A stretch of DNA of 64,000 nucleotides from Acidobacteria bacterium RIFCSPLOWO2_12_FULL_65_11 (GCA_001767495.1 MELA01000141.1:933-64932); one strand, 5' to 3'. Positions 1,803 through 19,658 are shown, numbered from the stretch's first letter. The notes: a model not told the origin generated them from the sequence alone. Numbers and translations are program-made.

Positions 1803-1868
1803 CAAGTCTCAAGTCTGAAGTCTGAAGGCTCAACTGTGGCAGACTTCAGACTTGAAACTTGAGACTTG
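1803..1868. repeat. heptad-periodic palindromic intergenic element (SAAGTCT repeats facing AGACTTS repeats), copy 1
   Basis: CAAGTCT CAAGTCT GAAGTCT on the left and TTCAGAC TTGAAAC TTGAGAC on the right. Shares an identical 20-mer AAGTCTCAAGTCTGAAGTCT with 7657-7676. Confidence 0.8.
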
Positions 1869-1871
1869 ATT

Positions 1872-3182
1872 ATGCCTCGAAGCCTGGAAGACAACGTCAA
1901 TTTCTACTTCGATCGCGCCGCCGGTTCGAGCGGCCACCCCAAGGGACTGCTCGATCAGATTCGCGCCTGTAACGGCGTGCATGCGTTCCAGTTTCCCCTC
2001 CGCCATGCCGACGGACGGATCGAGGTCGTTCGCGCCTGGCGCGCCGAGCACAGCCACCACCGGCTGCCCACCAAGGGTGGGATCCGCTATAGCGCCGCTG
2101 TCGACGAATCGGAGGTGAAGGCGCTGGCGGCGCTGATGACCTACAAGTGCGCGGTGGTTGACGTCCCGTTTGGCGGCGCGAAGGGCGCCGTGCAGGTCGA
2201 TCCGCACGCCCGGAGCGTCGAGGAGCTGGAGCGCATCACGCGCCGCTACACGCACGAGCTGGCCAAGAGGAATCTCATCGGGCCGGGCCTCGACGTGCCC
2301 GCACCGGACGCCGGCACCGGCGAGCGGGAAATGGCCTGGGTCGCCGATACGTATGCGGCCTTCAATCCGGGACAGCTCGATGCGATGGCGTGTGTCACGG
2401 GCAAGCCCGTCACCGAAGGCGGCATCCGGGGCCGGAAGGAGGCCACCGGACGCGGGCTTGTGTACGCGCTCAAAGAGGCGTGCTCGCAAGCCGACGACAT
2501 GAAGGCGCTCGGGCTCCCGGTCGGTCTCGAGGGCAAACGCATTGTCGTCCAGGGGTTCGGCAACGTCGGGTACTACACGGCGAAGTTGTGTCGCGAGCAG
2601 GGCGCGCGGGTGATCGCCATCGCCGTCCCCGAAGGCGCCATCGTAGACGCCACGGGGCTCGACGAAGACGCCGTGATCGCGCACCGAAAGGCCACGCGAT
2701 CGATCCTCGGCTTTGCCGGCGCGACCTCTCTTGCCCGCAGCACCGATGCGCTCGAGATCGACTGCGACGTCCTGGTGCCGGCTGCGCTCGAGAATCAGCT
2801 GACGGCCGACAATGCGCCGCGGGTCAGGGCCCGGATCATCCTCGAGGGCGCCAACGGCCCGACCACGGCTGAAGCCGACGAGATCTTCCGGGCCAAGGGA
2901 ACGCTCGTGATCCCGGACATCTACGCCAACGCGGGCGGCGTGACGGTGTCCTATTTCGAGTGGCTCAAGAATCTCTCGCACGTTCGCTTTGGACGGCTGG
3001 AGGGTCCCGATGAGTTACGCACCGTGAACTCCGGGCTTGAACGAACCATGGCGATCGCCTATCAGGAGATTCGCGAGACGCTAGGCCGGCAGCCTGGGCT
3101 GCAGTATCTGCGGACGGCGGCGTTTCTGACGGCCATCAACAAGGTCGCGCGCGCCTACCTCGAACTCGGCATTTTTCCATGA
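1872..3182 (+). CDS. gdh: glutamate dehydrogenase (Glu/Leu/Phe/Val dehydrogenase family)
   Basis: [25 protein letters not shown] catalytic-Lys motif and GFGNVG Rossmann motif. ATG at 1872 chosen over the upstream TTG. Confidence 0.9.
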
Positions 3183-3189
3183 AACGCGG

Positions 3190-4929
3190 ATGAAGTTTTC
3201 GGCCCTGGCGCTCGACTACGACGGCACGATCGCCGGAAGCGGCGGCATCGATCCGGCGGTGCGGGCGGCCATTGCCGATGCCCGGCAACACGGGATTGTC
3301 GTCGTGCTGGTCACCGGGCGCCGGCTGCCCGATCTCCGCCGGGCTGCCGGCAACTTGTCCTGCTTCGACGTCGTCGTCGCCGAGAATGGCGCGGTCCTCG
3401 AGTTCCCGTCGAGCGGCCGCCACGTGCAGCTCGCCCACGCCCCGAACGAGACCGTCCTTGCCGAATTCGCACGACGACGCATCGACGTGGTGGTCGGTGA
3501 ATCGGTGGTAGAGGCGGACGCGACGCTGGCGGTCCCGATCCTTGACGTGATTCGCCGGCTGGAACAGCCGCTGATTCTCGCGTTCAATCGAAGCCGTCTG
3601 ATGATCCTGCCGCAGGCCGTCGCCAAGTCCACCGGACTGCGGCAGGCGCTTCGCGCCTTGCGCGTCTCGATCCACAACGCGGTCGGCATCGGCGATGCCG
3701 AAAACGATCACGATCTGCTCGACGCCTGCGAGGTGGGGGTCGCCGTCGAATGGGGCAGTCCGGCGCTGCGGGCGGTGGCCGACGAAATCATCCGTGGAAC
3801 GGGCCCGGCGGCCGTGGCCGACTACATCACGCGAATCGTCGGTCAGCCGAGGTTGTCCGCCGCCCAGATGGGCCGGCGCCGCCTGTTCCTGGGCCATCAA
3901 CTCGACGGCCAGCCGGTCAGCCTGGCCGTTCGCGGGCGCACGATGATCGTCGCGGGCGAACCCGGCACAGGAAAGTCGTGGCTCGCGGGACTGCTCTGCG
4001 AGCAGCTCATCCTGCAAGGCTACTGCGTCTGCATCCTCGATCCGGAAGGCGACTACCGGTCGCTCGAAGCGCTGCCGAGCGTGATCGTGCTGGGGGGAGA
4101 CGATCCGCCGCCGAGCCCGCGCGATCTCGAGCAGGCGCTGCGCTATTCCGACGTCAGCGTGATTGTCGATCTCTCGAAGGTCGCTCATCAGGAGAAGATC
4201 GAGTATCTGAGCTCGCTTCTACCCATGCTGATCCAGCTTCGACGCCGGACGGGATTGCCGCACAAGATTCTGCTCGACGAGGCCCATTACTTCCTGGGCA
4301 CCGGCAAGGCGCATCTACTCGATCCCGAGCTGGCCGGCTACATTCTCGTCACCTATCGGGTCTCTGCTCTGGATCCGTCCATTCGCGCCACCAGTGACGC
4401 GGTCGTCATGGTGACTCGCGAGACGACGGGCCAGGAGGCCGAGGCGTTGTGCGAGATGTGCAGGGCCGGTCGTGTCCTGGCGCCCGCGCCGGAGATCTTT
4501 CGCGATCTGCAGGCAACGGAGGCGGCACTCTTGCCAGGCAGCGAAGAGGCGCACGGCGAGGTACGCCGGTTCCAGCTGGCGCCGCGGCTGACGGGCCACG
4601 TCCGTCATCGGACGAAATACCTCGACATGCCGATCCGGCACTCTCAGGCGTTCGTGTTCACGCAAGACGGCGGATCCGGGCCGCGGGCTCACACCCTGCG
4701 GGCCTTTATGGGACTGCTCGCCGCGCTCCCGGCCGAGGCGCTGCGGGGACATCTCGTCCGGCACGATTTCTCCACGTGGATCGAAGAGGTCTTCCGCGAC
4801 CGGTCGCTCGCCGCCCACGTGCTCGACCTCGAGGAGCGCGCGGAGACGTTCGGCGTCCAGAACGCCACCGACGCCATCGCACAGGCCATCCGCGCGCGGT
4901 ACGACGTCACCGACGACACGAACGTGTGA
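3190..4929 (+). CDS. HAD-IIB-type phosphatase domain fused to a HerA/DUF87-like P-loop ATPase
   Basis: N-terminal LDYDGTIA (HAD motif I) and GDAENDHDLL (motif IV). Then Walker A GEPGTGKSW and Walker B ILLDEAHYF. C-terminal roughly 130 aa unassigned. Confidence 0.75.
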   Translation: MKFSALALDYDGTIAGSGGIDPAVRAAIADARQHGIVVVLVTGRRLPDLRRAAGNLSCFDVVVAENGAVLEFPSSGRHVQLAHAPNETVLAEFARRRIDVVVGESVVEADATLAVPILDVIRRLEQPLILAFNRSRLMILPQAVAKSTGLRQALRALRVSIHNAVGIGDAENDHDLLDACEVGVAVEWGSPALRAVADEIIRGTGPAAVADYITRIVGQPRLSAAQMGRRRLFLGHQLDGQPVSLAVRGRTMIVAGEPGTGKSWLAGLLCEQLILQGYCVCILDPEGDYRSLEALPSVIVLGGDDPPPSPRDLEQALRYSDVSVIVDLSKVAHQEKIEYLSSLLPMLIQLRRRTGLPHKILLDEAHYFLGTGKAHLLDPELAGYILVTYRVSALDPSIRATSDAVVMVTRETTGQEAEALCEMCRAGRVLAPAPEIFRDLQATEAALLPGSEEAHGEVRRFQLAPRLTGHVRHRTKYLDMPIRHSQAFVFTQDGGSGPRAHTLRAFMGLLAALPAEALRGHLVRHDFSTWIEEVFRDRSLAAHVLDLEERAETFGVQNATDAIAQAIRARYDVTDDTNV

Positions 4930-4958
4930 ATCCCGTGTCGAGCGATTTCAGAACGACT

Positions 4959-5345
4959 TTACCAGGCCGTGCGCACAACCGCGGATTCCTGCAGCCGCTC
5001 GTCTTTCGTAATGAGGAGTGCCGATTCCAGAATCGCCGTTGCGGCGATCAGCCGGTCGGCGGGATCGCCGGGAAAACGCGCCGGTAGCTCCGCCGCTTTG
5101 ACGGCGACCGCCGGCGTGAGCGTCAGCAGGTCGACGCGAGGGAGCGCCAGGGCGTCGCGCATCCATTGGAGCGGCGGCCGATCGAGACTGATGCGGCCGC
5201 GCGCAACGAGCGTGGCCAGCTCGAGACAGCACATCGCTGGGACACCAATTCTTTTTGCGCGATCGATTTCTCGCCGCGCGACCCGTCCCAGTGCGGCCGG
5301 CTCGCTCACCCACCAGATCCAGGCATGCGTATCGAGAACGATCAC
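4959..5345 (-). CDS. vapC: PIN-domain toxin VapC
   Basis: VLDTHAWIWW N-terminal PIN signature and C-terminal LITKDERL. GTG 5345 gives a GTGA overlap with the antitoxin stop. Confidence 0.85.
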   Translation of the reverse strand: MIVLDTHAWIWWVSEPAALGRVARREIDRAKRIGVPAMCCLELATLVARGRISLDRPPLQWMRDALALPRVDLLTLTPAVAVKAAELPARFPGDPADRLIAATAILESALLITKDERLQESAVVRTAW

Positions 5346-5566
5346 CGCTCGACATCCCACGAGTCGAGGACCGGACCGACGATATCACCATGAACGATGA
5401 CGCTTCGGCGAAGGGGCTTGACGTCCCGATCCCTCACCGGAACGATCTCGACGACCGGTCGTCCGCGCTTCGTGACGATGAAAGATTCCTCTGTTTCGGC
5501 CACCCGATCGATGAGCCCCAGGCATTCGGCTTTGAACTTCCCTGCCGGAATCGTCCGTTTCTTCAT
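5342..5566 (-). CDS. type II antitoxin (Phd/YefM-like, VapB partner)
   Basis: MKKRTIPAGKFKAECLGLIDRV..FIVTKRGRPVVEIVPV matches the Phd/YefM-type N-terminal fold. Sits directly upstream of and overlapping vapC. Confidence 0.8.
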   Translation of the reverse strand: MKKRTIPAGKFKAECLGLIDRVAETEESFIVTKRGRPVVEIVPVRDRDVKPLRRSVIVHGDIVGPVLDSWDVER

Positions 5567-5585
5567 GGTCACGATAGATGTGACC
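5567..5585. promoter_or_regulatory. perfect palindrome GGTCAC-N7-GTGACC abutting the antitoxin start (candidate TA operator)
   Basis: GGTCACGATAGATGTGACC read directly. Lies immediately 5' of ATG 5566 on the minus strand. Confidence 0.4.
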
Positions 5586-5634
5586 ATTTCACATGAGCGT
5601 CAAATGCCCGATGTCCCTTCTCTCGCAGGGCACA

Positions 5635-6201
5635 TTACCCGCCCGACTGCCAGCGGTGGATGAAGTCGAACTGATGGATGAAGTTCAGGATGTTGAGCGT
5701 CAGGTTGTCGCGGATAACGTAGGCGACCCACACCTCGAACACCACGGCCAGCGCAAAGGTCGCCCACACTGAGGACATCCGAGCCACGGCGAAGCCCAGC
5801 ATCATCGAGAACGTATCGAAGACCGAGTTGATGACACTGTCCCCCACGTAACCCTGCGCAAGGGCCTGCTGTCGATACGCCTGGATCACCCAGGGTGTGT
5901 TTTCCGCGATCTCCCATGCGATCTCGGCTCCCATCGCCAAGAGCAGCCGCGAGCCCAACGACCAGTGCGGGAAAAGCCACCACGAGACCGCATAAAAGAG
6001 GACCCCGTGGATGACATGCGAGAACGTGTACCAGTCGGTCAAGTGCTGTGCGGTGCCAGATGACAACACCACACCCTCCCACGCCTTCACGTATCCACAC
6101 GTGCAGATCACCGGCTGTCCCAACAGGAACAACACCGTTCCTTGAAGGAGCAGCAAGGCCGCCACACCGATCAGAACGTAGTGATCCCGAACTGCTCGCA
6201 T
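5635..6201 (-). CDS. DUF2585 (UPF0314) family membrane protein
   Basis: CTCGYVKAWEG, HLTDWYTFSHVIHG and EIAENTPWVI segments recalled from DUF2585. Start set to ATG 6201 (MRAVRD), because the longer ORF runs into the neighbouring gene. Confidence 0.75.
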   Translation of the reverse strand: MRAVRDHYVLIGVAALLLLQGTVLFLLGQPVICTCGYVKAWEGVVLSSGTAQHLTDWYTFSHVIHGVLFYAVSWWLFPHWSLGSRLLLAMGAEIAWEIAENTPWVIQAYRQQALAQGYVGDSVINSVFDTFSMMLGFAVARMSSVWATFALAVVFEVWVAYVIRDNLTLNILNFIHQFDFIHRWQSGG

Positions 6202-6266
6202 ACGAGGCTTCTCGGTCAGTCGTCGCTGGTCTTTCTCGGTGGTGACGGCTGGGCCGTCCGAGGTCT

Positions 6267-7640
6267 TCAGGCCTGGGCCGGCCGCTCGAGCTTGAATTTC
6301 TCGACACGATACCGGATCTGATCGCGATTGAGGCCGAGAAGGCCGGCCGCCTTGGTCTGGTTCCATCCGCTGCGATCGAGCGCCTGCACCACGAGCGACC
6401 GCTCCAATTGCTCGAGGTCAACGCCGCTCGCGGGCAACTCGAAGCCCTCGCTGATGCGGGCATGGCCGCCGCCGAGCAGGAACTGATCGACGCCGAGAAC
6501 TGGCTCCTCGTCGCTCAGCAGCATCGCTCGCTCGATGGCGTTCCGCAGCTCGCGCACGTTACCTGGCCACGTGTAGGCCTGAAGCCGGGCCATCGCATCG
6601 GGGGCGACGCCACGGACGCGCTTCTTGAACTCGCGATTGAAGATGTCGATGTAGTAGTTGACCAGCAGCGGCACATCATCAGCCTTGGCCCGCAAGGGCG
6701 GCAGCGCAATCGGCAGGACGTTCAGGCGATAGTACAAATCCTCCCGAAACTTCCCCTGGCGTACTTCGTCCTCGAGACGCTTGTTGGTGGCGGCAATCAC
6801 CCGGACGTCGACGTGGATGTCGGTGGACGCGCCCACACGCTTGAAGGTCTTCTCTTCGAGAAACCGCAGCAGCTTCGCCTGGAGCAATGGCATCATCTCG
6901 CCAATCTCGTCCAGAAACACCGTGCCGCCGTCGGCCGATTCGAGGAGTCCCCGCTTCTGGCGATCCGCGCCGGTGAACGCTCCGCGCTCGTGCCCGAACA
7001 GCTCGCTCTCGAGCAGCTGCTCGGGCAAGGCTGAACACGTGATGTTCATGAACGGCTTGCTCGCCCGGTCGCTCGCGTAGTGGATGATCTTCGCGGCCAG
7101 ATCCTTCCCGGTGCCGCTCTCTCCGGTCAGGAGCACGGTTGACGCGGGGCTCGCCGCCACCTTCTGCAGGAGCGCTCGCACCTCGACCATCGCCAGGCTG
7201 TCGCCGATCAGGCGATCGAGGCTGAACGGCTGGGCCTGCGTGGCCCGCAACGTGCGCACCTCGCGACGCAGCCGCGTCGTTTCGAGCGCCTTCTCGACGA
7301 GCAGAACGATCTCGTCGATATTGAACGGCTTGTTGAGGTAGTGATAGGCACCCTGCTTCATCGCCTCGACGGCGGTCTCCACGCTCACATGGGCAGTGAG
7401 CAGAATGACCAGCGTGTCGGGGTCGTGCTCCTTGATTTTCTTGAGGACCGCCAGGCCGTCCGCATCGGGCAGCCGGTAATCGAGCAGGACGAGGTCGACG
7501 CCCTCCCGCATCCGATCGAGCGCTGCGGCGGCCGTATCGGCCTCGAGGACGTAGTACCCCTCCTCGCCCAGACGCGTGGTCAAGGACCAGCGAATGAGCG
7601 GTTCGTCGTCAACGACAAGGATGGTCGGCGCAGACATCAA
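6267..7640 (-). CDS. sigma-54-dependent response regulator (NtrC family: REC + AAA+ + Fis-type HTH)
   Basis: Receiver [16 protein letters not shown], Walker [15 protein letters not shown] sigma-54 contact loop, C-terminal [23 protein letters not shown]. Confidence 0.95.
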
Positions 7641-7724: not shown

Positions 7725-8117
7725 CTAATGCGGGCGGGCGGCGTGGGCCTGGAGGACGAGCGCGGCCATCTCGTGCATTTCGAAGGGCTTGGGCACGACA
7801 CGATAGGCGCCCAGATTCAAGGCGCTGGTCATGACTTCCGGTGTCCCGAAGGCCGTCATCATGATGATCTGACTGAACGGCGCGAGGCGCCGCAGCGTCG
7901 ACAGCAAGGTCAGATCGTTTGAATCCGGCAGACGATAGTCGAGCACGATGACATCCACGAGTTCCTTGCCCTCAGAGAGAGTGCGAATAGCCGTTTCGCC
8001 ATCGCACGCCTCAATCACGGTATGACCAGAGGCCGAGAGCGTCTCGGCCAGCGACCACCGAATGAGCGGCTCGTCGTCAATGACGAGGACGTGTAACGAT
8101 GGGGATTTTTTCGCCAT
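7725..8117 (-). CDS. stand-alone response-regulator receiver protein
   Basis: [34 protein letters not shown] receiver motifs with no output domain. Start set to ATG 8117 (MAKKSP), because upstream ORF codons are REP-encoded. Confidence 0.85.
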   Translation of the reverse strand: MAKKSPSLHVLVIDDEPLIRWSLAETLSASGHTVIEACDGETAIRTLSEGKELVDVIVLDYRLPDSNDLTLLSTLRRLAPFSQIIMMTAFGTPEVMTSALNLGAYRVVPKPFEMHEMAALVLQAHAARPH

Positions 8118-8250
8118 GTGGGAATTTTTCGGCGGGCCTACTGGCTCGGCCGCTCCTCCCTTCGCGCCCGTCCGACCGGTGGTCCGTATAACCTCTCCAC
8201 TCACACTGCAAGGGCACTTCAAGAGTCGGGCCAACGTTTTTTTCGACCTG

Positions 8251-8311
8251 TGGTGTCCGCCTTCAGGCGGACCGTGGCTCGCGGGGGTCCGGCTGAAACC
8301 GGACACTACAG
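8251..8311. repeat. REP-like hairpin dimer (Q forward + P reverse)
   Basis: GTGTCCGCCTTCAGGCGGAC ... GTCCGGCTGAAACCGGACACTAC. The terminal CTA (8306-8308) is the kinase stop codon (TAG on the minus strand). Confidence 0.9.
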
Positions 8312-9772
8312 AGAAGTGCGAAGAGGCAGGCGCACGGTAATTGTGGTACCTCCGCCAACCGGGCAATCGACCGTGATCGTCCCTCCGTGCGCCTCGACGA
8401 ACTGCTTCGTCGTCGGCAGGCCGAGCCCGGTGCCTTTCGACTTGGTCGTGAAGAACGGCGTGAAAATTTTCTCCCGCACGTCGGGAGGAATCCCCGGACC
8501 GGAATCGACAATGACGATCTCGCAGCTGTTCTCAATCGAGGTCACAGATGTGCCGATCACACCCTTGCCGCGCATCGCCTGGGCGCTGTTGAGCAGCAGG
8601 TTCTCAAAGACGACGCCCAACAGACTGGCATCGGCCATGACGGGAGGGACAGCGCCCGAGATCTCCACGCGCAGATCCTTGAACGACGCGTCCTTCCGGA
8701 GCAGATCGGCGGTCGTCTCGAGCAGGGACACCACATCGAGTGGCGTCGGCTTGGGCTGAGGCGGCCGCGCGAACAGCAGCAGATCCCTCATCAGGTCGTT
8801 CAATCCATCGACGCGCCGGATGACTTCCTCCATCACCGCCTTATCCCGGCTGCCTGCTGGCAACCGGCCGGCGATCACTTGAACGGCGCCTCGCACGGCG
8901 GCGAGCGGATTCTTCACCTCGTGGGCGAGGACGGCCGCCATTTCGCCGAGCCTGGCGAGCCCCGCCTGCTCACGAAGCTGTTCTTCCAACTGCACCCGAG
9001 ACGTCAGGTCGTGGATGATCCCCGAAAACTTGCGCTCGCCGCCGACGGTCATCTCGCCGACCGACAGATGGATGGGGAAGGTCGTTCCGTCCTTGCGGCG
9101 GCCGAACACCGCGCGGCCGATGCCGATGATCTTTCGTACGCCCGTCGCCAGGTACCGCTCGATGTATCGGTCGTGTTCCTCGCGATATGGCGACGGCATC
9201 AGGATGTTCACGCGCTGGCCCAACACCTCCTCTTCCGTGTATCCGAACAATCGTTGAGCCGCCGGATTGAAGGCTTCGACCCGGCCGCGCGCATCGATCA
9301 GGACGATGCCATCGACGGCGGACTCGACGACAGCCCGCCAGCGGGCTTCGCTGTCGCGCAGTTGCTCCTCTAGCTGGACCCGAGTGGTGAGATCGTGAAT
9401 GATCCCCGTGAACTTGCGCTCGCCGCCGACCGACATCTCGCCGACGGAGAGATGGATGGGGAACGTGCGACCGTCCTTGCGACGGGCGATGACCTCCCGA
9501 CCGAGGCCGATGATCCTGGGCACGCCCGTGGTCAGGTATCGCTCGATGTACCCGTCGTGCTCGTCGTGATACGGCGCCGGCATCAGCATGCTGACGTTAC
9601 GGCCCATCACGTCGGCCGCGGCGTAACCGAACAAGCGCTCCGCGGCCGGATTGAAGGCTTCGATGCGACCGCGAGCATCGATGACGACAATGCCGTCGAC
9701 GGCGGATTCTACGATGGCCGCCAGAACGCGAGCCGCGTTCTCTCCCAGCTTGAGATTCGTGGGGTCTGACAT
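8306..9772 (-). CDS. cytoplasmic PAS-PAS sensor histidine kinase
   Basis: Two near-duplicate PAS modules (VESAVDGIV.IDARGR.EAFNPAA.RLFGY). HisKA H-box LAHEVKNPL. HATPase motifs DSGPGIP and GTGLGL. Confidence 0.92.
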   Translation of the reverse strand: MSDPTNLKLGENAARVLAAIVESAVDGIVVIDARGRIEAFNPAAERLFGYAAADVMGRNVSMLMPAPYHDEHDGYIERYLTTGVPRIIGLGREVIARRKDGRTFPIHLSVGEMSVGGERKFTGIIHDLTTRVQLEEQLRDSEARWRAVVESAVDGIVLIDARGRVEAFNPAAQRLFGYTEEEVLGQRVNILMPSPYREEHDRYIERYLATGVRKIIGIGRAVFGRRKDGTTFPIHLSVGEMTVGGERKFSGIIHDLTSRVQLEEQLREQAGLARLGEMAAVLAHEVKNPLAAVRGAVQVIAGRLPAGSRDKAVMEEVIRRVDGLNDLMRDLLLFARPPQPKPTPLDVVSLLETTADLLRKDASFKDLRVEISGAVPPVMADASLLGVVFENLLLNSAQAMRGKGVIGTSVTSIENSCEIVIVDSGPGIPPDVREKIFTPFFTTKSKGTGLGLPTTKQFVEAHGGTITVDCPVGGGTTITVRLPLRTSL

Positions 9773-9901: not shown

Positions 9902-10249
9902 GTGCACGCCGCCACATCCGCCGCCAGGACGATCGCGGAGCGCATCGCTTCTGCAGACACGGGCTCCGCATTGGACCGGGCGGTTGCCGAGTTTGCGGAT
10001 GTATTGAGAGGCGTCCCTAACCAGGGTGTGGCCGAATTCACCCCAGCCGATCACGAGGCGCTCAAGGCGCTTGCAGAGCGCGTCATCGACCGAATCGAGG
10101 ACCGCCTGGCCGCGCACCACGATCGCGCATCGATTCAGCAGGACCTTGCCGGCGCCATCTACCGGATCCGTCGAGAGCTGGAGGAGATCGATCGCTGGCA
10201 GCGTCATTACCAGGGAACGGAGGGGCCGGCTTCCGGGAGGGCATCATGA
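9902..10249 (+). CDS. hypothetical helical protein
   Basis: High GC3 ORF whose TGA overlaps the next ATG (ATGA), suggesting coupling to the usp gene. GTG start is uncertain because it sits about at the predicted sigma-54 transcription start. Confidence 0.45.
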   Translation: MHAATSAARTIAERIASADTGSALDRAVAEFADVLRGVPNQGVAEFTPADHEALKALAERVIDRIEDRLAAHHDRASIQQDLAGAIYRIRRELEEIDRWQRHYQGTEGPASGRAS

Positions 10250-10749
10250 TTCAGATGAAGAACATTCTCGTGGCCACCGACTTTGGCGAAGCGGCCGACG
10301 CCGCGCTGGCCTACGGCCGCACGTTGGCGCGCACCTTCGGCGCCACGCTGCACGTGATCCACGTGGCCGAGAATGTGATCATGAGAAACGCGGGTCTGGG
10401 TGGCGAGAGCTACATCACGCTGCTGCCGGATCTGCAGCGCGACATCGAAGCGTCGGCGCGCAAGCAGCTCGACGAGCGGCTCATTGACGACGACCGGCCC
10501 GCGATCCCGACCAAGAGCAGCATCGTCACATCGATCGTGCCGGCACGATCGATCGTCGAGTACGCGAAGAACGCCGGCATCGATCTGGTCGTGATCGGGA
10601 CGCACGGCCGGGGCGGCCTCACTCGCCTGTTCATGGGGAGCGTGGCCGAGCGGGTCGTCCGCACCTCGCCGTGCCCGGTGCTGACCGTGCATCATCCGGA
10701 GCGCGAGTTCGTACTGCCGGATGCGCTGGTGGCCACGACCAAGGCCTGA
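10246..10749 (+). CDS. universal stress protein (UspA family)
   Basis: ILVATDFGEAADAAL..LHVIHV..DLVVIGTHGRGGLTRLFMGSVAERVVRTSPCPVLTV is a canonical Usp ATP-binding motif. Confidence 0.9.
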   Translation: MIQMKNILVATDFGEAADAALAYGRTLARTFGATLHVIHVAENVIMRNAGLGGESYITLLPDLQRDIEASARKQLDERLIDDDRPAIPTKSSIVTSIVPARSIVEYAKNAGIDLVVIGTHGRGGLTRLFMGSVAERVVRTSPCPVLTVHHPEREFVLPDALVATTKA

Positions 10750-10750
10750 C

Positions 10751-11701
10751 GTGAAGCGCAACGTGTTGCGGGTCTTGTGCCCGGTTGATTTCTCAGAGTC
10801 CTCGCGTCGGGCGCTCAGGTATGCCGCCGCGGTGGCCGGCCTGTATGGCGGGCGATTGACGGTGCTCTTCGTGGAGGACGCCCTGCTCGTGTCGGCTGCC
10901 GCGGCTGGCTACGACCCACGCGTCCTCGCGAAAGCCTCGATGAGAGAACTGCGCCGGTTCGTCAGCCAGGCGATTGGACGAGCGCGTGCACGGTCGGTCG
11001 AGTGCGCGGTGTCGCTCGGCGTCCCAGCCCGCGAGATCGAGAAGGTCGCCACGCGGCTTCGCGCCCACCTGATCGTGATGGGCACGCACGGTCTCCGCGG
11101 TCCGAAGCGGCTCTTCTTCGGGTCGACGACGCGTGACGTGCTGAGGCGCGCCACGGTGCCCGTGTTGGCGGTGCCGCGGGCCGCCGCGCGCCGGCCGCCG
11201 GCGTCATGGCCCGGCGATCGCTTTCTCGCGGGCATCGAGCTCGGCAGCAACGCCCGGACCGACGCGCGGGCCGCCGCGACATTCGCCCGCGGCTTCGGCG
11301 CGGCCTTGCTCCTGGTCCACGTCCTGCCCGACCTTCAGGCGCCGTCCTGGGTCCGCGCACGTCCGGGCGAGCCCGAGAGCCGCCGCGTGGCCAAGGCCCG
11401 GATGCAGCTCAAACGCGTCATGGCGGGGCTCGGCCCTCGAGTCCACGCGGAGCCGTGCGTGCTCGTCGGAAACCCCGCCGACACGATCTCGGCCGAGGCC
11501 GCCCGCCTGCGAATTGGACTGATCGTGCTTGTTCTGCGAGGTGCCCGCGGCGTGTTCGGCGCGCGTCCCGGGTCGATCGCTTATCAGGTGCTCTGCCAGG
11601 GGCTGGTGCCGGTGGCCGCCTTGCCGAGCCGCTTTCGCCCCCGTGGTCCATCAGTAGTCAAAGCGGCCCTCCGCGCGCTTGGGTCGACGACGTTTCTCTA
11701 G
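10751..11701 (+). CDS. tandem-domain universal stress protein
   Basis: First Usp domain has LIVMGTHGLRGPKRLFFGSTTRDVLRRATVPVLAV. A second, degenerate Usp domain follows. GTG 10751 preferred over the overlapping upstream start. Confidence 0.8.
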   Translation: MKRNVLRVLCPVDFSESSRRALRYAAAVAGLYGGRLTVLFVEDALLVSAAAAGYDPRVLAKASMRELRRFVSQAIGRARARSVECAVSLGVPAREIEKVATRLRAHLIVMGTHGLRGPKRLFFGSTTRDVLRRATVPVLAVPRAAARRPPASWPGDRFLAGIELGSNARTDARAAATFARGFGAALLLVHVLPDLQAPSWVRARPGEPESRRVAKARMQLKRVMAGLGPRVHAEPCVLVGNPADTISAEAARLRIGLIVLVLRGARGVFGARPGSIAYQVLCQGLVPVAALPSRFRPRGPSVVKAALRALGSTTFL

Positions 11702-11780
11702 ACTACTGCGTCACCCTCACGACCATAAGACATACGTGTACCGCAGTGCTGTCTCGTCGCTGGTCAGAACGCCTGGGGCG

Positions 11781-13625
11781 TTAACTCTCGAAGTCGGGCC
11801 CTCTTGACGGCCGCGTCATGCGCAGGGCGTTGAGAACGGCAAACAGATCGATCGCCTCTTGAAACACCGCTCCGGCCACAGGTGAGAGCAGGCCGAAGGC
11901 GGCCAACATCATTCCGGCCCCGCTCAGCGCCATGCCGCCAATCGCGCTTTGCAGCGCCACGCGCCGGAGACGAAGACTGAGGTGGATGAGCTCATCGACC
12001 TTCGACAACGAGCTGTCGATGATGACCACGCGCGCGGCTTCAGTGGTCACGTCGCTGTGCAAGCCGAACGCGATCCCCACGGTGGCCGCCATCAAGGCCG
12101 GCGCGTCGTTGATGCCGTCACCCACGAACAGCGTCCCCGCCCGCTCGGTTTCCCTGCGGACGATCGCGACTTTCTCCTCCGGCGACGTTCCGGCGTGGAT
12201 CTGAGCAATCGCCATCAGGTCGGCCAGCCGCCTGACCTCCGCCTCGCGATCGCCGGAGACGACGAGCACGCGGGTAAACCCGTGTTTTGGTCCCAGGTGA
12301 TCGACAAATCCCCGACTGTCCGGCCGGGGCAGGTCATGGAACCTGAAAATCGCCGCATAGCGATCGTCGATGATGACGACGCACTCGAGGCCCGTCGGCT
12401 GGCTCGGTGGCAACTCGAACCGGTTGACCGCATTCGACCGGTTGGTGATTAAGACGGAGAAATCGCCCACCTTCCCGCGCAAGCCCACCCCGGGTTCCTC
12501 GCGAATCCACGCCACGTCCGGCAACGGGTATCGAGCATCAGCGGCCGCCTGGGCGATGGCGGCGGCGAGCGGATGACGGCTGTACTGCTCCATCGCCGCC
12601 ACGACCGGGAGGACGGTATCTCGGGTGAACGGCGGCGCGTACAGCTCGTCGCTCAGGCTCGGACGGCCCAAGGTCAGCGTCCCTGTCTTGTCGAAAATCA
12701 TCGTGTGACAGCGCCCCAGCTGCTCGAGGGCAGCCGGGTCTTTCACGATGACGCTCCGCCGCGCGGCCGTGGAAATGGCGCCGATGATGGCGACCGGAAT
12801 GGCAATGAGCAGCGGACACGGCGTCGCCACCACGACGACGCTCAGGAACCGAGTGGGGCTTCCAGACCACCACCACGCGCCCGCCGCCAGTCCAAGGGCC
12901 ACCGGCGTGTACCAGGCGCCAAGCTGGTCGCCGATTCGACGGAGCTTCGGACGTCGCTCGTCGGCCTCCTGCATGACCTGCATGATGCGCGCATAGCGGC
13001 TGTCGGCAGCGATGCGAGTGGCGCGAATCGCAAGCGACGTCTCGCCATTGACGGCACCAGAGAGGACCGAGGCGCCCGGTCCCTTGGAGATCGTGAACGG
13101 CTCGCCCGTCAGGTACGACTCGTCCATCGTCCCGTGGCCTTGAATCACTTCGCCGTCCACCGGGCAGATTTCATGAGGGAGGACAGAGAGCTCTTCGCCG
13201 ACCGCGATCTCGGCAACCGGCACATCCTCGAACCCGCTCCCGCGCCGGCGATGCGCGAGCGTGGGGACGCGGCGCGCCAGCGCGCGCAATACCGAGGTGG
13301 CCTCGGCGACCGCATAGCTCTCGAGCGTCTCCCCGCCGGCCAGCATCAGCACCACGATCGCGCCCGCGAGGTACTCGTCGAGCACAACGGAAGCCACGAT
13401 CGAGATCCCAGCGAGGTGATCGGAGCCAAACTGACCGTGCGCGCCCCGCCAGGCCAGGCGCAACACCAGAGGGAGACCTCCGCCGGCCAGCACGATGAGC
13501 AGCGGCAGATTCGCGGCTTGACCGAGCGAGCCGCCTGAGACGAGGTACCGCAGAGTGAGGTAAACAAGGATGCCGGCGAGGCTCAGGAGGGCAATCAGCG
13601 CGTTGGTGTCCCTCCAGAACCTCAT
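11781..13625 (-). CDS. P1B-type heavy-metal P-type ATPase with TPCP transmembrane motif (P1B-5-like), no N-terminal metal-binding domain
   Basis: [17 protein letters not shown] and TGEP motifs. TM motif VATPCPLLIAIP. Start set to ATG 13625 (MRFWRD). Confidence 0.88.
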   Translation of the reverse strand: MRFWRDTNALIALLSLAGILVYLTLRYLVSGGSLGQAANLPLLIVLAGGGLPLVLRLAWRGAHGQFGSDHLAGISIVASVVLDEYLAGAIVVLMLAGGETLESYAVAEATSVLRALARRVPTLAHRRRGSGFEDVPVAEIAVGEELSVLPHEICPVDGEVIQGHGTMDESYLTGEPFTISKGPGASVLSGAVNGETSLAIRATRIAADSRYARIMQVMQEADERRPKLRRIGDQLGAWYTPVALGLAAGAWWWSGSPTRFLSVVVVATPCPLLIAIPVAIIGAISTAARRSVIVKDPAALEQLGRCHTMIFDKTGTLTLGRPSLSDELYAPPFTRDTVLPVVAAMEQYSRHPLAAAIAQAAADARYPLPDVAWIREEPGVGLRGKVGDFSVLITNRSNAVNRFELPPSQPTGLECVVIIDDRYAAIFRFHDLPRPDSRGFVDHLGPKHGFTRVLVVSGDREAEVRRLADLMAIAQIHAGTSPEEKVAIVRRETERAGTLFVGDGINDAPALMAATVGIAFGLHSDVTTEAARVVIIDSSLSKVDELIHLSLRLRRVALQSAIGGMALSGAGMMLAAFGLLSPVAGAVFQEAIDLFAVLNALRMTRPSRGPDFES

Positions 13626-13846
13626 CGGCAGGGAGCTTAACACTGGTCGTCGAGAACACCGGCAGAGACCGCCGCCGGCGCGACATCGGTGGGGGTTCTG
13701 GGAGATTGGTCGAGAGTGGGCGGCTTCAGACAGGAAGTTTTTCCGGACGTGTGGGAAAAACCTCCGCTTCATAACCACTGGGCCGGCTAATTGCCGGCGG
13801 GTCAAGTGTTTTCGGCCTGATCTTCGCCATCACGGCCAGCCGATGC

Positions 13847-15774: not shown

Positions 15775-16656
15775 ATGACCCCACTTCGGCAGCGCATGCT
15801 CGAGGACATGGAGGTGCGGAATCTCTCCCCGCACACGCAACGGGCCTACATCGAGAATGTCGCCCGGTTCGCTCGTCACTTCGATCGGTCCCCCGTCGAA
15901 TTGGGCCCCGAGGAGATTCGCGCCTATCAGGTGTACTTGGTCCGCGAACGACAACTGGCCCCCAGTTCGCTCGGCATTGCGGTCTGCGCCCTGCGCTTCC
16001 TCTATAAAGTCACCCTCAAGCAGCCGTGGGCCTTCGACGACCTGATTCCCGCCCCGAACAAGCCGCGGCGCTTGCCGGTCGTCCTCAGCCCCGACGAAGT
16101 CGCCCGCTTTCTGGCGTGCGTCACGCACCCCGAGCACCGCGCCATCCTGACGACGTGCTACGCGGCGGGCTTGCGCGTGTCAGAGGTGGTCCACCTGCGA
16201 CCCACGGATGTCGACAGCCGCCGGATGGTGATCCGCGTCGAGCAAGGGAAAGGCCAGCGCGATCGCTACGTCATGCTCTCCCCGACGCTCCTCGAACTGT
16301 TGCGCGAGTGGTGGCGCGCCCACCGGCCGACCGCGTGGCTGTTTCCCGGCCAGCATCCTGACCAGCCGATCACGAGTCACGCCGTCCGCGAGGCGTGTCA
16401 GCGCGTGCATCGTCGATCGCGTCTCACCAAACCGGTCACTCCGCACGCGCTCCGCCATGCGTTCGCGGTCCATCTCCTCGAAGCCGGGACCGACGTGCGC
16501 ACGATTCAACGGCTCCTGGGCCATCGCAGTCTGGAGACCACCGCCCGCTATCTGCGGATCGCCACGACGCAGGTCTGTGCGACCGCGAGTCCACTCGACC
16601 TGCTCCCACGGCCGGTGCCGCTCTCGTCGACGTCCACCACGCCGCCCACCTGCTGA
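15775..16656 (+). CDS. tyrosine recombinase / phage-integrase-family protein associated with IS91-type element
   Basis: N-terminal SAM-like core-binding domain. Catalytic ..GLRVSE..HALRHAFAVHLLEAGTDVRTIQRLLGHRSLETTARYLRI. Confidence 0.9.
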   Translation: MTPLRQRMLEDMEVRNLSPHTQRAYIENVARFARHFDRSPVELGPEEIRAYQVYLVRERQLAPSSLGIAVCALRFLYKVTLKQPWAFDDLIPAPNKPRRLPVVLSPDEVARFLACVTHPEHRAILTTCYAAGLRVSEVVHLRPTDVDSRRMVIRVEQGKGQRDRYVMLSPTLLELLREWWRAHRPTAWLFPGQHPDQPITSHAVREACQRVHRRSRLTKPVTPHALRHAFAVHLLEAGTDVRTIQRLLGHRSLETTARYLRIATTQVCATASPLDLLPRPVPLSSTSTTPPTC

Positions 16657-16665
16657 CGCGCGCTC

Positions 16666-17877
16666 GTGGATCGTCCGACGCTGGAGGTGGCGGACATCTT
16701 CCGTCGCTACGGCGACACCTATCGGGACGCGGCCGGTTCCTCACTCTCGACCGCTCAGCGGCGGGTGATGACCGCGATCGAGACATGCCGCACCGCCGCC
16801 CTCGGCGGGCACGTCGAGCAGTGCGACACGTGTGGCCACCAGCGCATCGCCTACAACTCGTGTCGGAATCGCCACTGTCCGAAAGGCCAATCGCTTGCTC
16901 GCGCCGCGTGGATCGAGCCGCGCACGGCCGAAGTGCTCGAGTGCGCATACGTTCACGTCGTCTTCACGATCCCTGCGTCGATCGCCGCCATTGCGCTCCC
17001 GAACAAAGCGGTCGTGTACCGGATCCTCTTTCGCGCGACGGCCGAGACCCTCCGGACCATTGCGGCTGACCCCCGGCATCTCGGCGCACAAATCGGGTTC
17101 TTCGCTGTGCTTCATACGTGGGGCCAGACGCTGGTCCATCATCCGCATCTGCACTGCGTCGTGCCGGGCGGCGGTCTCTCGTCCGATGGCACCCGCTGGA
17201 TCGCCTGTCGCCCGGGGTTCTTGCTGCCCGCCCGGGTGCTGTCACGCCTCTTCCGCCGGGTATTCCTGCAACAACTTCAGGCGGCGTTCACGGTCGGCCC
17301 GCTCACCCTGACGGGCTCGCTTCAGGCGCTCCGCGATCCGGACGCCTGGGCGCGCTATCTGGCACCGGTGCGGCAGACCGAGTGGGTCATCTACGCCAAG
17401 CGGCCTTTTGCCGGCCCGTCACCGGTCCTCGACTATGTCGGTCGGTACACGCATCGGGTCGCCATCTCGAACGATCGGATCCGGGAGATCGACGACGATG
17501 ACGTCCGCTTTACCGATAAGGACTACCGGGCGAGTCCCGCGCAGTCCGTGAAACCGATCACGCTTGCCGCCACCGAATTCATTCGCCGCTTTCTGTTACA
17601 CGTGCTGCCTTGGGGCTTTCACCGGATTCGGTATGACGGCTTCCTCGGTCCTCGCCATCGGGCCGAGAAGCTCTCACGCTGCCGCCAGCGTTTGGCGTCC
17701 ACCCCGACGCCCGCCACCTCGCCGGCCACCGTGACCGCCGCCGCTGACCCGCCGCGCCTTGCTGTCCGGGCACGCGTCTCGATGCGCCTATGCCCGGCCT
17801 GTGGGCGAGGTCACCTGATCGTGCTCGACCAACTGCCGCCCACCGCCCGTCCCTCGCTCATCCCGGATACGTCGTGA
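16666..17877 (+). CDS. IS91-family (Y2 HUH, rolling-circle) transposase
   Basis: N-terminal Zn-binding CDTCGH..CRNRHCPKG. HUH region LHTWGQTLVHHPHLHCVV. Tyr motif YVGRYTHRVAISNDRI. C-terminal CPACG. Confidence 0.9.
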   Translation: MDRPTLEVADIFRRYGDTYRDAAGSSLSTAQRRVMTAIETCRTAALGGHVEQCDTCGHQRIAYNSCRNRHCPKGQSLARAAWIEPRTAEVLECAYVHVVFTIPASIAAIALPNKAVVYRILFRATAETLRTIAADPRHLGAQIGFFAVLHTWGQTLVHHPHLHCVVPGGGLSSDGTRWIACRPGFLLPARVLSRLFRRVFLQQLQAAFTVGPLTLTGSLQALRDPDAWARYLAPVRQTEWVIYAKRPFAGPSPVLDYVGRYTHRVAISNDRIREIDDDDVRFTDKDYRASPAQSVKPITLAATEFIRRFLLHVLPWGFHRIRYDGFLGPRHRAEKLSRCRQRLASTPTPATSPATVTAAADPPRLAVRARVSMRLCPACGRGHLIVLDQLPPTARPSLIPDTS

Positions 17878-18410
17878 CATCCCCCATCCTCACTCACGGG
17901 CGTGCGTCACACGCGCCACTGCCGCGTCACGCATCTCGTGTGTCTCGATCAGGACTCGCCGTGCGTGCCACCGCCACCCCACACGATCCGATTGCGTCGC
18001 GGCGCACTTCTGCGCCCCTCCTCTCCACATCGCCCTCTGGCTCCCACGTCTCTGCTCGATGTCCAGTCCTTCGCCGAGGTCCCACGTCATTCAATGCCCA
18101 TAGCCGACGCATCCGGCTAGCGGTTTCGTCCCATCCGTTTTTCAGTCACCGGCGCGGCGAGCGCACACCTCTCCACCTCCCAACGCTCTCGCGCCGCGCC
18201 GCCGACCGAAAAACGCTCTGGATTAGGACCGTCTGGGAGTTAGCATAACGCCCGTTCTCAGATCCGCTCCCCCTCCGACAGCGCGGATTGGCTGTCCCTG
18301 AAGCGCCGATTGTGAGACTCCCGCGAGGGATCGTCAAGCACCAGAAGCCTCGTGTGAGGCGTGGCGGCGCCCACGGGCACACCTCCGGCGCGCTGACGCG
18401 TCCGCCATCG

Positions 18411-19502
18411 TCAGGAGCACGGGTCGAACATCGGGGTCTCGTCGCCTACAAGGTCGGCATCCCGCGCGGTGAGCGGCGGCGCGCGGGCAGGACGCGGCGC
18501 GGGAATCTCGGCGGGCAGATCCAGATGATGCAGGATCCGCTCGATCACCGCCGCCTGCTCGATGAGCGCCACCAGGCGCAGCCGGCCGCCGCACCGCGGG
18601 CAGGCCAGCACGTCGAACCCGAACGTCCGGCTCATCAAGTCGGCCCACAGCCGGTTGTGCCCAGGGCCCCGAGCCGCCGTCGGCGTGTCGCGCGGACCGT
18701 GTGGCGTCGGACGAGACGCGATCGCCCCGGCGTCACGACCTGTCGCGGTCGTGTGCGTGACGACCGCCGACCGCCACGCCGCCCGCGGCGCCAGGACGCC
18801 GTGATAGAGAATCAGATTGATCCGCGGCCGCGGCACAAGCACCGCCAGGCGTCCCAGAAAGTCGAGCGGATCCCCCTCCAGGTGCGTCGTGCCATCCGCC
18901 CACCGATGCCGGAGCTGAAGCCGCACGCGCCCGTCGACCGTCACGCTGAGCCGTTCTCGCGCCACGGGCGGACGCAACGCATAGCGACACACCGCCTCGA
19001 GCCGCGCCCGCTGCCCGGCCGGCACCGGCGCTTCGGCCGCCCAGGCGTCCTCCTCGCTGGCCTCGTCGCGATCCCCGAGCCCGCGCCGATCGAGCACGCG
19101 CCTGATCCCCGGCTCTACCGTGGCCAGCACCTCCGCCACATCCAGATCCGTGAGGCGAGGCGCCGGGTGAAACGCCAGAGCACCCGCTTCGTCCCTCGCG
19201 AAGACGCCGTCCACCACGAGCGCGTGGATGTGCACGTTGAGATTGAGCGCGCCCCCGAACCGCTGGACGATCGCGACCGCGCCCCCGCGGCCGTCCTGCA
19301 CGCCGTCCCATCGCGCGCGGCCGCGCAGCCAGCCGCACCGCAGAAAGGATCGGAACTCCTGCTCGACAAATCGCGGCAGCCCGTCCCCGTCGCGCAGACT
19401 CGCGGCCTGCACGCGGAAGGTCTCGAACTGCTCCCGCACGACCTGGTACAGCACGCTCCCGGCAGGACTCCGCGGTTCGTAGCGGACCGATGGCAGCGCC
19501 AC
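18411..19502 (-). pseudogene. second, divergent IS91-family transposase with internal deletion of the Zn-binding segment
   Basis: Retains FLRCG, NLNVHIHALVVDGV (HUH), CRYALRPPVARERL and C-terminal ACPRCGG..ILHHLDLP. The sequence jumps from FLRCGWLRG directly to AVAIVQRFG. Confidence 0.6.
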
Positions 19503-19658
19503 GCGCCGCGCTGTGGCGAGCGGCGTGCCAACGAGTGACGGCCGGAATCGCTGGACTTCCGGACGATCGGGTCCGCGAAGGTGGCAGTTTCTGCGTACGC
19601 GAACATGGTGGCGTCGGCAGATTCTCTGGCGACAACGCTGGAGCCGTCGTACGGGACA

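Follow-up and report, generated by a model that had tools for sequence, protein, structure and literature searches.

Phosphatases of the HAD-IIB type that fall in the Cof-type/SPP-subfamily, among them PH1421 (1wr8), TA0175 (1kyt), YidA and the sucrose-6-phosphate and trehalose-6-phosphate phosphatases, carry four catalytic motifs and a C2B-type cap. The HerA/FtsK superfamily, represented by 4d2i, 8j4u, YjgR (11kk) and STIV B204, is characterized by a RecA-like core of the additional-strand catalytic glutamate (ASCE) type, together with a hairpin, a DP(E/H)GDY strand, a DEAH motif, an (S/T)-x-R-P motif with a conserved arginine, and L..GEA. OrfY (4cso) is a stand-alone protein of 216 aa with two copies of its module. 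In a 64,000-nucleotide stretch of DNA from Acidobacteria bacterium RIFCSPLOWO2_12_FULL_65_11 (the whole stretch is hereafter the window), one gene at 3190..4929 on the plus strand unites a phosphatase of the first kind, which has the same four motifs and cap, an ATPase of the second, which has all of the core features just listed, and a single copy of the OrfY module, which closes a 579-aa enzyme. Unlike the HAD-IIB phosphatases, the protein is covalently joined to the ATPase and the OrfY-like domain, and no such HAD-IIB fusion was found described. It departs from HerA proper in that its family has a HAD domain instead of the HAS-barrel, an appended OrfY-like domain, and a context of stress genes rather than of repair or defence.

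The present analysis establishes the three-domain architecture, the stress-island context and, for each of the two enzymes, that the catalytic residues are intact. We read the window protein tentatively, as a possibility that falls somewhat short of probable, as a stress-response enzyme of a large family, namely an ATP-gated hexameric phosphatase that acts on a phospho-metabolite. The gene and its parts are as follows.

3190..4929 (+), three-domain gene (HAD-IIB phosphatase, compact HerA-like ATPase and OrfY/DUF5752-like domain), 579 aa, ATG start
3190..3834 (+), HAD-IIB phosphatase domain with a small C2B-type cap, residues 1-215 (Pfam Hydrolase_3, TIGR01484, PDB profile, Foldseek)
3214-3228 (+), HAD motif I, D9-x-D11-G-T13
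3691-3714 (+), HAD motif IV, G168-DAENDHD175
3835..3939 (+), linker and beta-hairpin ahead of Walker A, residues 216-250; strands 231-237 and 242-246 in the model; aligns to the pre-Walker-A part of 8j4u and of YjgR 11kk
3940..4539 (+), compact FtsK/HerA-superfamily ATPase core, residues 251-450 (domain about 230-450)
3955-3978 (+), Walker A, G256-x-P-x-x-G261-K-S263
4039-4056 (+), DPEGDY, residues 284-289
4276-4287 (+), Walker B, D363-E-A-H-Y367 (DEAH)
4585..4626 (+), basic loop R466-x-T-x-H-V-R-H-x-x-K-Y-x-D479 between the ATPase and the C-terminal domain; invariant columns in three alignments
4651..4914 (+), OrfY/DUF5752-like domain, one copy, residues 488-575; beta-hairpin followed by five helices

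Domains and catalytic residues

With E<=1e-3 as the threshold, the 579-aa protein matches more than 4000 database proteins, of which the 120 best span the full length with 68-99% identity. Long open reading frames (ORFs) can be spurious in 66%-GC DNA; because of these matches, and because all of the motifs quoted by an initial annotation of the window are present, the ORF 3190..4929, found exactly where that annotation had placed it, is by the evidence of its sequence a genuine gene and no high-GC artefact. An antisense ORF of 350 aa (3136-4188, minus strand) covers the first half of the gene, and other long ORFs overlap its neighbours; all of these look like typical high-GC shadow ORFs, with no sign of coding.

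HAD motif II corresponds to T42-G-R and motif III to K146 in a 75-member family alignment, in which the quoted HAD and ATPase motifs are all invariant or nearly so; two further alignments agree. The residues D9, D11, T13, T42, K146 and G168-D169...D173 are invariant or at least 90% conserved across the alignments of 75, 34 and 90 sequences. The window protein matches Pfam Hydrolase_3 with E 3.4e-21 (76.6 bits, cut-off 20.9) and the NCBIfam model HAD-SF-IIB TIGR01484 with 54.0 bits, over its cut-off of 41.8. Comparison of the family profile with the PDB yields YidA 1rkq at 3e-29 and PH1421 1wr8 at 5e-26, the range recorded for YidA, YhaX and PH1421 being 1e-26 to 3e-29. An AlphaFold2 monomer model was obtained from the 90-sequence alignment (predicted local distance difference test, pLDDT, 88.6; predicted template modelling score, pTM, 0.77); a single-sequence model of pLDDT 37.5 was left unused. 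Foldseek of the model against the PDB returns PH1421 (1wr8) with a template modelling score of 0.83 on the target, followed by the sucrose-6-phosphate and trehalose-6-phosphate phosphatases, the top matches being HAD-IIB proteins throughout, and in the model the C2B cap is an alpha/beta insertion at residues ~80-135, between motifs II and III. Judged by these matches, residues 1-215 are a bona fide member of HAD-IIB with its catalytic residues intact. The first 50 whole-model matches in the PDB are HAD domains (rank 50 is 8wiv_A, named a HerA-domain protein), and the ATPase and the C-terminus were judged by a library of viral structures and by profiles.

The window protein alone matches Pfam DUF87/HerA-central with 32.7 bits (cut-off 23.2), covering residues 250-294 only. 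A profile of the diverse family was compared with the PDB, and the matches comprise 9x1l (7.8e-10), archaeal HerA 4d2i (2.9e-8), bacterial HerA 8j4u (3.8e-6), E. coli YjgR 11kk (4.3e-6), FtsK 4nh0 (8e-5) and STIV B204 (8e-4). The HerA alignments extend from the pre-Walker-A hairpin over DPEGDY, Walker B and TYRP/SQRP to the terminal L..GEA. The invariant or near-invariant ATPase motifs of the 75-member alignment also include G355-LPH, and T-Y389-R390 (TYRP), which aligns with the SQRP motif of HerA and is at least 90% conserved, supplies a putative arginine finger. Viral structures found by Foldseek are packaging ATPases of the PRD1/A32 type, a HerA-like protein and FtsK. From its alignments, the ATPase is a bona fide member of the FtsK-HerA superfamily. 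The initial annotation had proposed an N-terminal HAD domain and a HerA/DUF87-like P-loop ATPase; the former is upheld by Pfam, TIGR01484, the family alignments and Foldseek, and the latter by profile matches to solved HerA proteins that reach well past Walker A, the P-loop region being HerA-like in profile searches. We also note that the last ~130 residues, described there as matching nothing, do have relatives, which are presented below.

Three features that define HerA proper are lacking in the window protein. There is no HAS-barrel, as the HAD domain fills residues 1-215 and just a two-strand hairpin (231-246) precedes Walker A. In HerA 4d2i, ~125 residues lie between the DPEGDY-equivalent strand (~182) and the next aligned strand (~309), whereas the window family has ~30 (profile positions 78-109); the ~125-residue stretch is taken as the helical insertion of HerA, which appears much reduced here. 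The third feature is a partner effector gene: no partner of the NurA, Sir2 or DUF4297 type is found among the 25 commonest neighbour clusters of 80 related loci, or in the annotated loci.

The basic loop that follows the ATPase is the sole internal low-confidence stretch of the model, with pLDDT <50 at residues 471-476. With the ATPase it permits a different reading, a machine directed at nucleic acid or protein, in which the HAD domain would remove a phosphate from a substrate (DNA, RNA or a polypeptide) threaded through a translocating HerA-like ring, in repair or in the maintenance of ribosomes or RNA during dormancy. The solved structures nearest to the ATPase are those of HerA helicases, FtsK and the ATPases that package viral genomes, the invariant residues R466, H470, R472, H473 and K476 of the loop could bind nucleic acid, and the polynucleotide kinase-phosphatases, fusions of a P-loop domain with a 3'-phosphatase of the HAD type, provide an analogy. 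The phosphatase itself argues for another kind of substrate, since HAD-IIB enzymes with a C2B cap typically have small-molecule substrates and the nearest HAD relatives are sugar-phosphate and phosphoglycolate phosphatases. Moreover, the missing HAS-barrel is the part that forms the substrate-entry and partner-binding face in HerA. We consider a translocating machine unlikely.

The C-terminal domain carries the signature F.F...A.TL.EF...H..R.DFS.W...F.D..LA; with OrfY, the last 90-100 residues have F.F...A.TL.EF...H...DFSRW...D..LA in common. A family profile matches OrfY of Thermoproteus tenax (4cso_A) with E 3.3e-15 and a second profile with 7.2e-9, the latter aligning to both 4cso repeats (residues 57-109 and 116-197). 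The Pfam family DUF5752 (PF19027, 23-bit cut-off) is reached by some homologues with 23.1 and 28.3 bits, and several more have precomputed matches; for the window protein alone, no PF19027 match is listed at E<=0.1. The C-terminus is accordingly assignable at the family level, and by profile comparison, to DUF5752/OrfY, with a single repeat only. The orfY gene may belong to the treT (trehalose synthase) operon. No published function of the OrfY/DUF5752 domain was found in the literature, despite the solved structure, and no stand-alone DUF5752 gene was found on annotated plasmids.

A large family in stress and dormancy islands

The ATPase and C-terminal module is present in 2090 representative clusters at E<=1e-3 and in 283 at E<=1e-30, mostly as proteins of ~580 aa in which the HAD domain comes first. 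Genome matches are mainly from Acidobacteriota (Vicinamibacteria and Terriglobia), and also from Verrucomicrobiota, Eremiobacterota, Binatota and others; identity is 50-70% within Acidobacteriota, across classes, and ~30-34% to other phyla, and the full-length architecture is invariant. The gene is chromosomal, and the window, judged by the closest relatives, comes from a Vicinamibacteria genome. Full-length homologues of ~31-34% identity are found in Agrobacterium, Aminobacter, Sinorhizobium, Paraburkholderia, Caballeronia, Synechococcus PCC 7502 and Nonomuraea. An apparent 440-aa type of the ATPase module was considered and rejected, its members being genes called too short, with a start inside the HAD domain; forms of 355-375 aa may be stand-alone proteins. 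Source annotations are generic ('HAD family hydrolase' or 'hypothetical') and no literature on a HAD-HerA fusion was found, in keeping with the remark of the initial annotation that the domain combination is uncharacterised. As far as could be found, both the three-domain combination and its association with islands of universal stress protein (USP) genes are undescribed.

Two variants may be recorded here. The metagenomic protein P0175 (855 aa, a single sequence) has ~280 extra N-terminal residues before the HAD-ATPase-DUF5752 unit, in which two hydrophobic segments surround a periplasmic sensor-like region and are followed by a coiled coil, an arrangement that recalls receptor proteins. Some acidobacterial genomes hold two paralogues, each amid its own stress genes, namely L012 and L030 (CAVWSQ010000002.1, ~50 kb apart), L004 and L010 (JBGPKK), and L009 and L060 (CAVRVJ).

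For a survey of the family's neighbourhood, ORFs on both sides of the gene were clustered de novo across the 80 related loci, with Pfam checks, and neighbours were counted within 6 kb. The recurrent ones are the following.

45/80 loci, tandem USP
20/80 loci, P-type cation ATPase
20/80 loci, Hsp20
18/80 loci, ribosome hibernation factor
17/80 loci, phosphoribosyltransferase/dienelactone-hydrolase protein
16/80 loci, PAS-sigma54 activator
13/80 loci, YbaK-like editing protein
12/80 loci, Zn alcohol dehydrogenase
9/80 loci, GroEL
9/80 loci, acyl-CoA synthetase-GNAT

At least one core stress gene occurs in 65 of the 80 loci and at least two kinds in 44. Of 71 USP ORFs, 27 lie no more than 1 kb from the family gene, and in 7 loci a USP gene is directly upstream on the same strand. 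The window itself carries the stress cohort of the family, with the USP genes ~5 kb downstream of the three-domain gene:

6267..7640 (-), NtrC-type sigma54 activator (Pfam)
7725..8366 (-), response regulator (Pfam)
8306..9772 (-), PAS-PAS histidine kinase (Pfam)
10246..10701 (+), single-domain USP (Pfam Usp, E 2.3e-33)
10721..11701 (+), tandem USP (Pfam Usp, E 1.6e-39)
11781..13805 (-), P-type cation ATPase (Pfam E1-E2_ATPase, Hydrolase)

The stress-island setting recurs across Acidobacteriota, Proteobacteria, Cyanobacteria and a distant actinobacterial-looking clade, with CBS proteins and regulators of the oxygen/redox type among its genes. In Agrobacterium, CBS proteins and two P-type ATPases accompany a tandem USP gene that lies immediately upstream in the same orientation; the Synechococcus PCC 7502 locus has Dps, BON, hemerythrin, rubredoxin, GlsB, TspO and an extracytoplasmic function (ECF) sigma factor; and cydAB, hemerythrin, Mn-catalase and Hmp are found in Paraburkholderia. 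The distant clade contributes USP, CBS, baeRF, NAPRTase, Zn alcohol dehydrogenase and a protein joining HAD and GH65. In two of the three long contigs of this clade (L081 and L082) the family gene stands beside a complete A/V-type ATPase operon; DUF1918 occurs in L081 and L083, and a PCMT-type methyltransferase in L082 and L083. Two further neighbours recur among the Vicinamibacterales loci L016, L019, L020, L021, L023, L024, L026, L029 and L044, namely a conserved 81-aa ORF with no Pfam match (e.g., L023 5868-6113) and an ABC-type ATPase directly downstream of the family gene on the same strand.

Comparable gene sets are known from the mycobacterial DosR dormancy regulon and from the alphaproteobacterial EcfG/RpoE2 regulons, which resemble the family neighbours in their tandem USPs, small heat-shock protein, hibernation factor, phosphoribosyltransferase/dienelactone-hydrolase, P-type ATPase, CBS and HAD+GH65 proteins. 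The DosR regulon may itself contain a homologue of the family, with Rv2004c as the candidate. The DosR blocks, with Rv0079 as ribosome factor and Rv0571c as phosphoribosyltransferase, are documented (PMC5309233). The regulators near the genes in Acidobacteriota loci are PAS-sigma54 activators, unlike the DosR and EcfG control. A drop in O2 strongly induces usp genes and a sensor kinase in the acidobacterium A. capsulatum (PMC11636273); the supplement of this low-oxygen transcriptome lists usp genes and no HAD/HerA gene.

The neighbourhood bears on two of the alternative readings. A machine translocating nucleic acid or protein would be at home beside the hibernation factor (18/80), the YbaK-like tRNA-editing protein (13/80), baeRF and a LigD Prim-Pol; against it, nuclease, NurA, ligase and Ku are not conserved partners among the top neighbour clusters. 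The coupling with tandem USPs, tight and on the same strand, suggests instead that the protein could be a signalling phosphatase and regulator of the island, its HAD domain dephosphorylating a protein (e.g., the adjacent USPs) or a signalling nucleotide, and its ATPase and OrfY-like module serving as sensor or scaffold. USPs are nucleotide-binding proteins. The sensor-like N-terminus that precedes the whole unit in P0175 would fit a signalling role, although it is known from a single metagenomic sequence, and the depositors of 4cso label it 'OrfY protein, transcription factor', although no paper was found to back the label. There is no evidence of USPs as phosphoproteins in these organisms, and the capped HAD-IIB architecture favours small substrates. 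On balance, a signalling phosphatase seems to us distinctly unlikely, somewhat more so than the translocating machine.

The flanking gdh and VapBC genes and other features of the window

The genes on either side of the three-domain gene, confirmed by Pfam as the gdh and the PIN/Phd pair that the initial annotation had described, are the following.

1866..3182 (+), gdh (glutamate dehydrogenase), its stop codon 7 nt before the start of the three-domain gene
4959..5360 (-), PIN toxin of a VapBC-type pair, convergent, 30 nt past the end of the three-domain gene
5342..5587 (-), Phd/YefM antitoxin of the VapBC-type pair

PIN and Phd are present in none of the 80 related loci. Furthermore, the VapBC cassette (window 4916-5636) corresponds to 15 bp (9727-9741) in the otherwise colinear, 84%-identical locus L001, an indel of ~720 bp. 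The VapBC pair is a lineage-specific cassette unrelated to the three-domain gene, and the functional lead that had been drawn from its adjacency falls away.

With the cassette goes one argument for a conflict or defence system, in which a HerA-type ATPase with a HAD effector would deplete nucleotides or another metabolite on phage attack, possibly together with VapBC. Other grounds for it do exist. Known defence systems include pairs of a HerA ATPase and an effector, the PDB matches include the defence-type HerA 8j4u, and PADLOC gives weak matches to mad8 (residues 231-302, 1.6e-7) and HerA (8e-4). HAD domains can also be anti-phage effectors that deplete deoxynucleoside triphosphates (bioRxiv 10.64898/2026.01.15.699771). 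However, the PADLOC matches are confined to the Walker-A region (residues ~231-302) and no full-length system is matched. No carrier of the ATPase/C-terminal module was found in phages, and the 'plasmid' matches, all in other phyla, lie on large non-mobilisable replicons. The invariant architecture and the identities quoted above, 50-70% across the classes of Acidobacteriota and 30-34% across phyla, are high for a defence gene, and the conserved neighbours are stress genes, neither defence genes nor mobile elements. The conflict-system idea of the initial annotation thus finds no support, and we regard a defence role as very unlikely.

The same annotation had held a metabolic role to be equally possible, from the position directly behind gdh. 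A start 7 nt after the gdh stop on the same strand, an arrangement common to L001 and L002, could indicate an enzyme of nitrogen or amino-acid metabolism that is co-transcribed with gdh and acts on a metabolite of its pathway. Yet gdh is adjacent in L001 and L002 only, the two closest relatives among the 80; L034 has a gdh relative of 24% identity ~0.9 kb upstream. No other nitrogen-metabolism gene recurs in the survey, and the family as a whole shows no conserved metabolic operon whose substrate is known. The neighbourhood survey largely refutes this reading, which is highly improbable; in the window, the three-domain gene is probably co-transcribed with gdh by local accident.

Several other features of the window are worth recording. 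A DUF2585 ORF (5635-6366, minus strand) overlaps the sigma54-activator ORF (6267-7640, minus strand) by 100 nt and its Pfam match begins only at residue 79, because of which its true start probably lies well downstream of the listed one. In L001, ~2.5 kb of extra sequence (10308-12808) separates the DUF2585 and sigma54-activator genes and includes a P-type ATPase-like ORF absent from the window. The response-regulator ORF (7725-8366, minus strand), which overlaps the histidine-kinase ORF by 61 nt, has its receiver domain only from residue 93 onwards, and the TTG listed as its start therefore probably extends it too far. Around 15775-17877 (+) and 19581-22013 (+), a heavy-metal P-type ATPase that carries YHS and HMBD domains has beside it a tyrosine recombinase (Phage_integrase) and a transposase of the IS91 family (Y2); together they are probably a mobile metal-resistance insertion that borders the stress island. 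The 416-aa ORF 18288-19538 has no Pfam match.

Proposed function and significance

Like other HerA/FtsK ATPases, the three-domain protein would assemble as a ring, probably a hexamer. The conserved arginine aligned with the HerA SQRP motif is compatible with, without proving, a trans-acting finger and hence a ring. The six HAD domains would sit on the face where HerA bears its HAS-barrel, and the binding or hydrolysis of ATP in the ring would read the energy state and gate the phosphatase, perhaps with a contribution from the invariant basic loop and the OrfY-like domain. The substrate is most likely a small phospho-metabolite, the leading candidate being a phospho-sugar precursor of a protective solute (trehalose-6-phosphate-like). 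The enzyme would be switched on in the response to hypoxia, starvation or desiccation.

Evidence on the time of expression comes from promoter sequences. S. meliloti Ak57 (L084 8897-8921) has an exact EcfG/RpoE2-type motif, GGAAC-N16-CGTT, 104 nt upstream of the start codon, which by our estimate would arise by chance with a probability well below one in a hundred, at a fraction of one percent, and a near-match (GGTT) is found in Aminobacter (L086, -84). The locus tag and RpoE2-regulon membership of the gene in S. meliloti 1021 were sought by way of the promoter sequence in the supplements of PMC3616915 and PMC6180224 and not found. As a separate observation, a few members have well-placed sigma54-like -24/-12 elements, in the range -43 to -70: L020 (-55, a perfect TGGCAC-N5-TTGCT), L014, L034, L070, L015 and L019.

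The candidate substrate is suggested by relatives and neighbours of the phosphatase. By sequence and by fold, the nearest HAD relatives are of the PH1421 type and the sucrose-6-phosphate and trehalose-6-phosphate phosphatases. In Caballeronia the family gene is third in a tight operon behind two genes for glycosyltransferases of family 4 (GT4), with a 15-bp gap; in Aminobacter it is divergent from genes for a GT4, an amylo-1,6-glucosidase and an OtsA-type trehalose-phosphate synthase (TPS) that has no phosphatase domain of its own; and the orthologous GT4 is nearby in Paraburkholderia. Trehalose synthesis by a GT4-type TPS together with a HAD-type trehalose-phosphate phosphatase is documented (PMC7688234). 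For Acidobacteriota, a general linkage of the family gene to GT4/TPS genes was considered and rejected.

Several points weigh against an ATP-gated phosphatase of phospho-sugars in the stress response. No GT4 or TPS lies within 8 kb in any of the 80 acidobacterial-type loci or in the window, because of which the sugar-phosphate link rests on the three proteobacterial loci. The window protein reaches the cut-off of no characterised NCBIfam HAD-IIB equivalog, the best scores being 70.9 for Cof-subfamily (cut-off 137), 67.6 for Pglycolate_arch (122.75) and 48.1 for SPP-subfamily (107). Some Cof-type HAD-IIB enzymes are nucleotidases, which leaves substrates other than phospho-sugars possible. The classical role of HerA/FtsK ATPases is to translocate DNA or protein, rather than to act as allosteric regulators. 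Neighbour order and orientation vary, and the link is one of the same island, with no fixed operon. The enrichment of USP ORFs, ~8% of gene-equivalents in the flanks against well under 1% in typical genomes (M. tuberculosis has 10 USPs; PMC2914252), comes from a rough comparison that has no matched genomic control. The sigma54 motif TGGCAC-N5-TTGCW is not enriched upstream of family genes, matches of at least 9/11 being found in 12% of sense, 15% of antisense and 5.7% of random regions. Finally, no experiments on any family member were found in the literature, and the oligomeric state, the ATP dependence and the substrate are all features that we infer.

A bolder form of the gated-phosphatase reading can be put forward, which we hold to be doubtful. 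A HerA-type ring ATPase may have been taken over, beyond the fields of DNA repair and phage defence, to serve a hexameric phosphatase as its energy-sensing engine, and this phosphatase would act as a dormancy or stress switch that crosses phyla. ATP occupancy would gate six HAD sites that release a protective sugar or drain a pool of phospho-metabolites or nucleotides, and the enzyme would be a core part of USP islands that had so far gone unnoticed, possibly including the mycobacterial DosR regulon.

If the gated-phosphatase reading is true, HerA-type motors, usually associated with DNA end resection, conjugation, virus packaging and anti-phage defence, would also have been recruited to control a small-molecule phosphatase. 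Few parts of the stress and dormancy physiology of bacteria, that of the abundant and hard-to-culture soil Acidobacteriota included, are as widespread and as little understood as USPs and their islands. The family places a conserved enzyme with two testable activities in the USP islands of at least four phyla and provides a biochemical entry point, for which cultured, tractable carriers exist in Agrobacterium tumefaciens, Aminobacter aminovorans, Caballeronia, Synechococcus PCC 7502 and S. meliloti Ak57; the OrfY/DUF5752 domain gains its first functional context.

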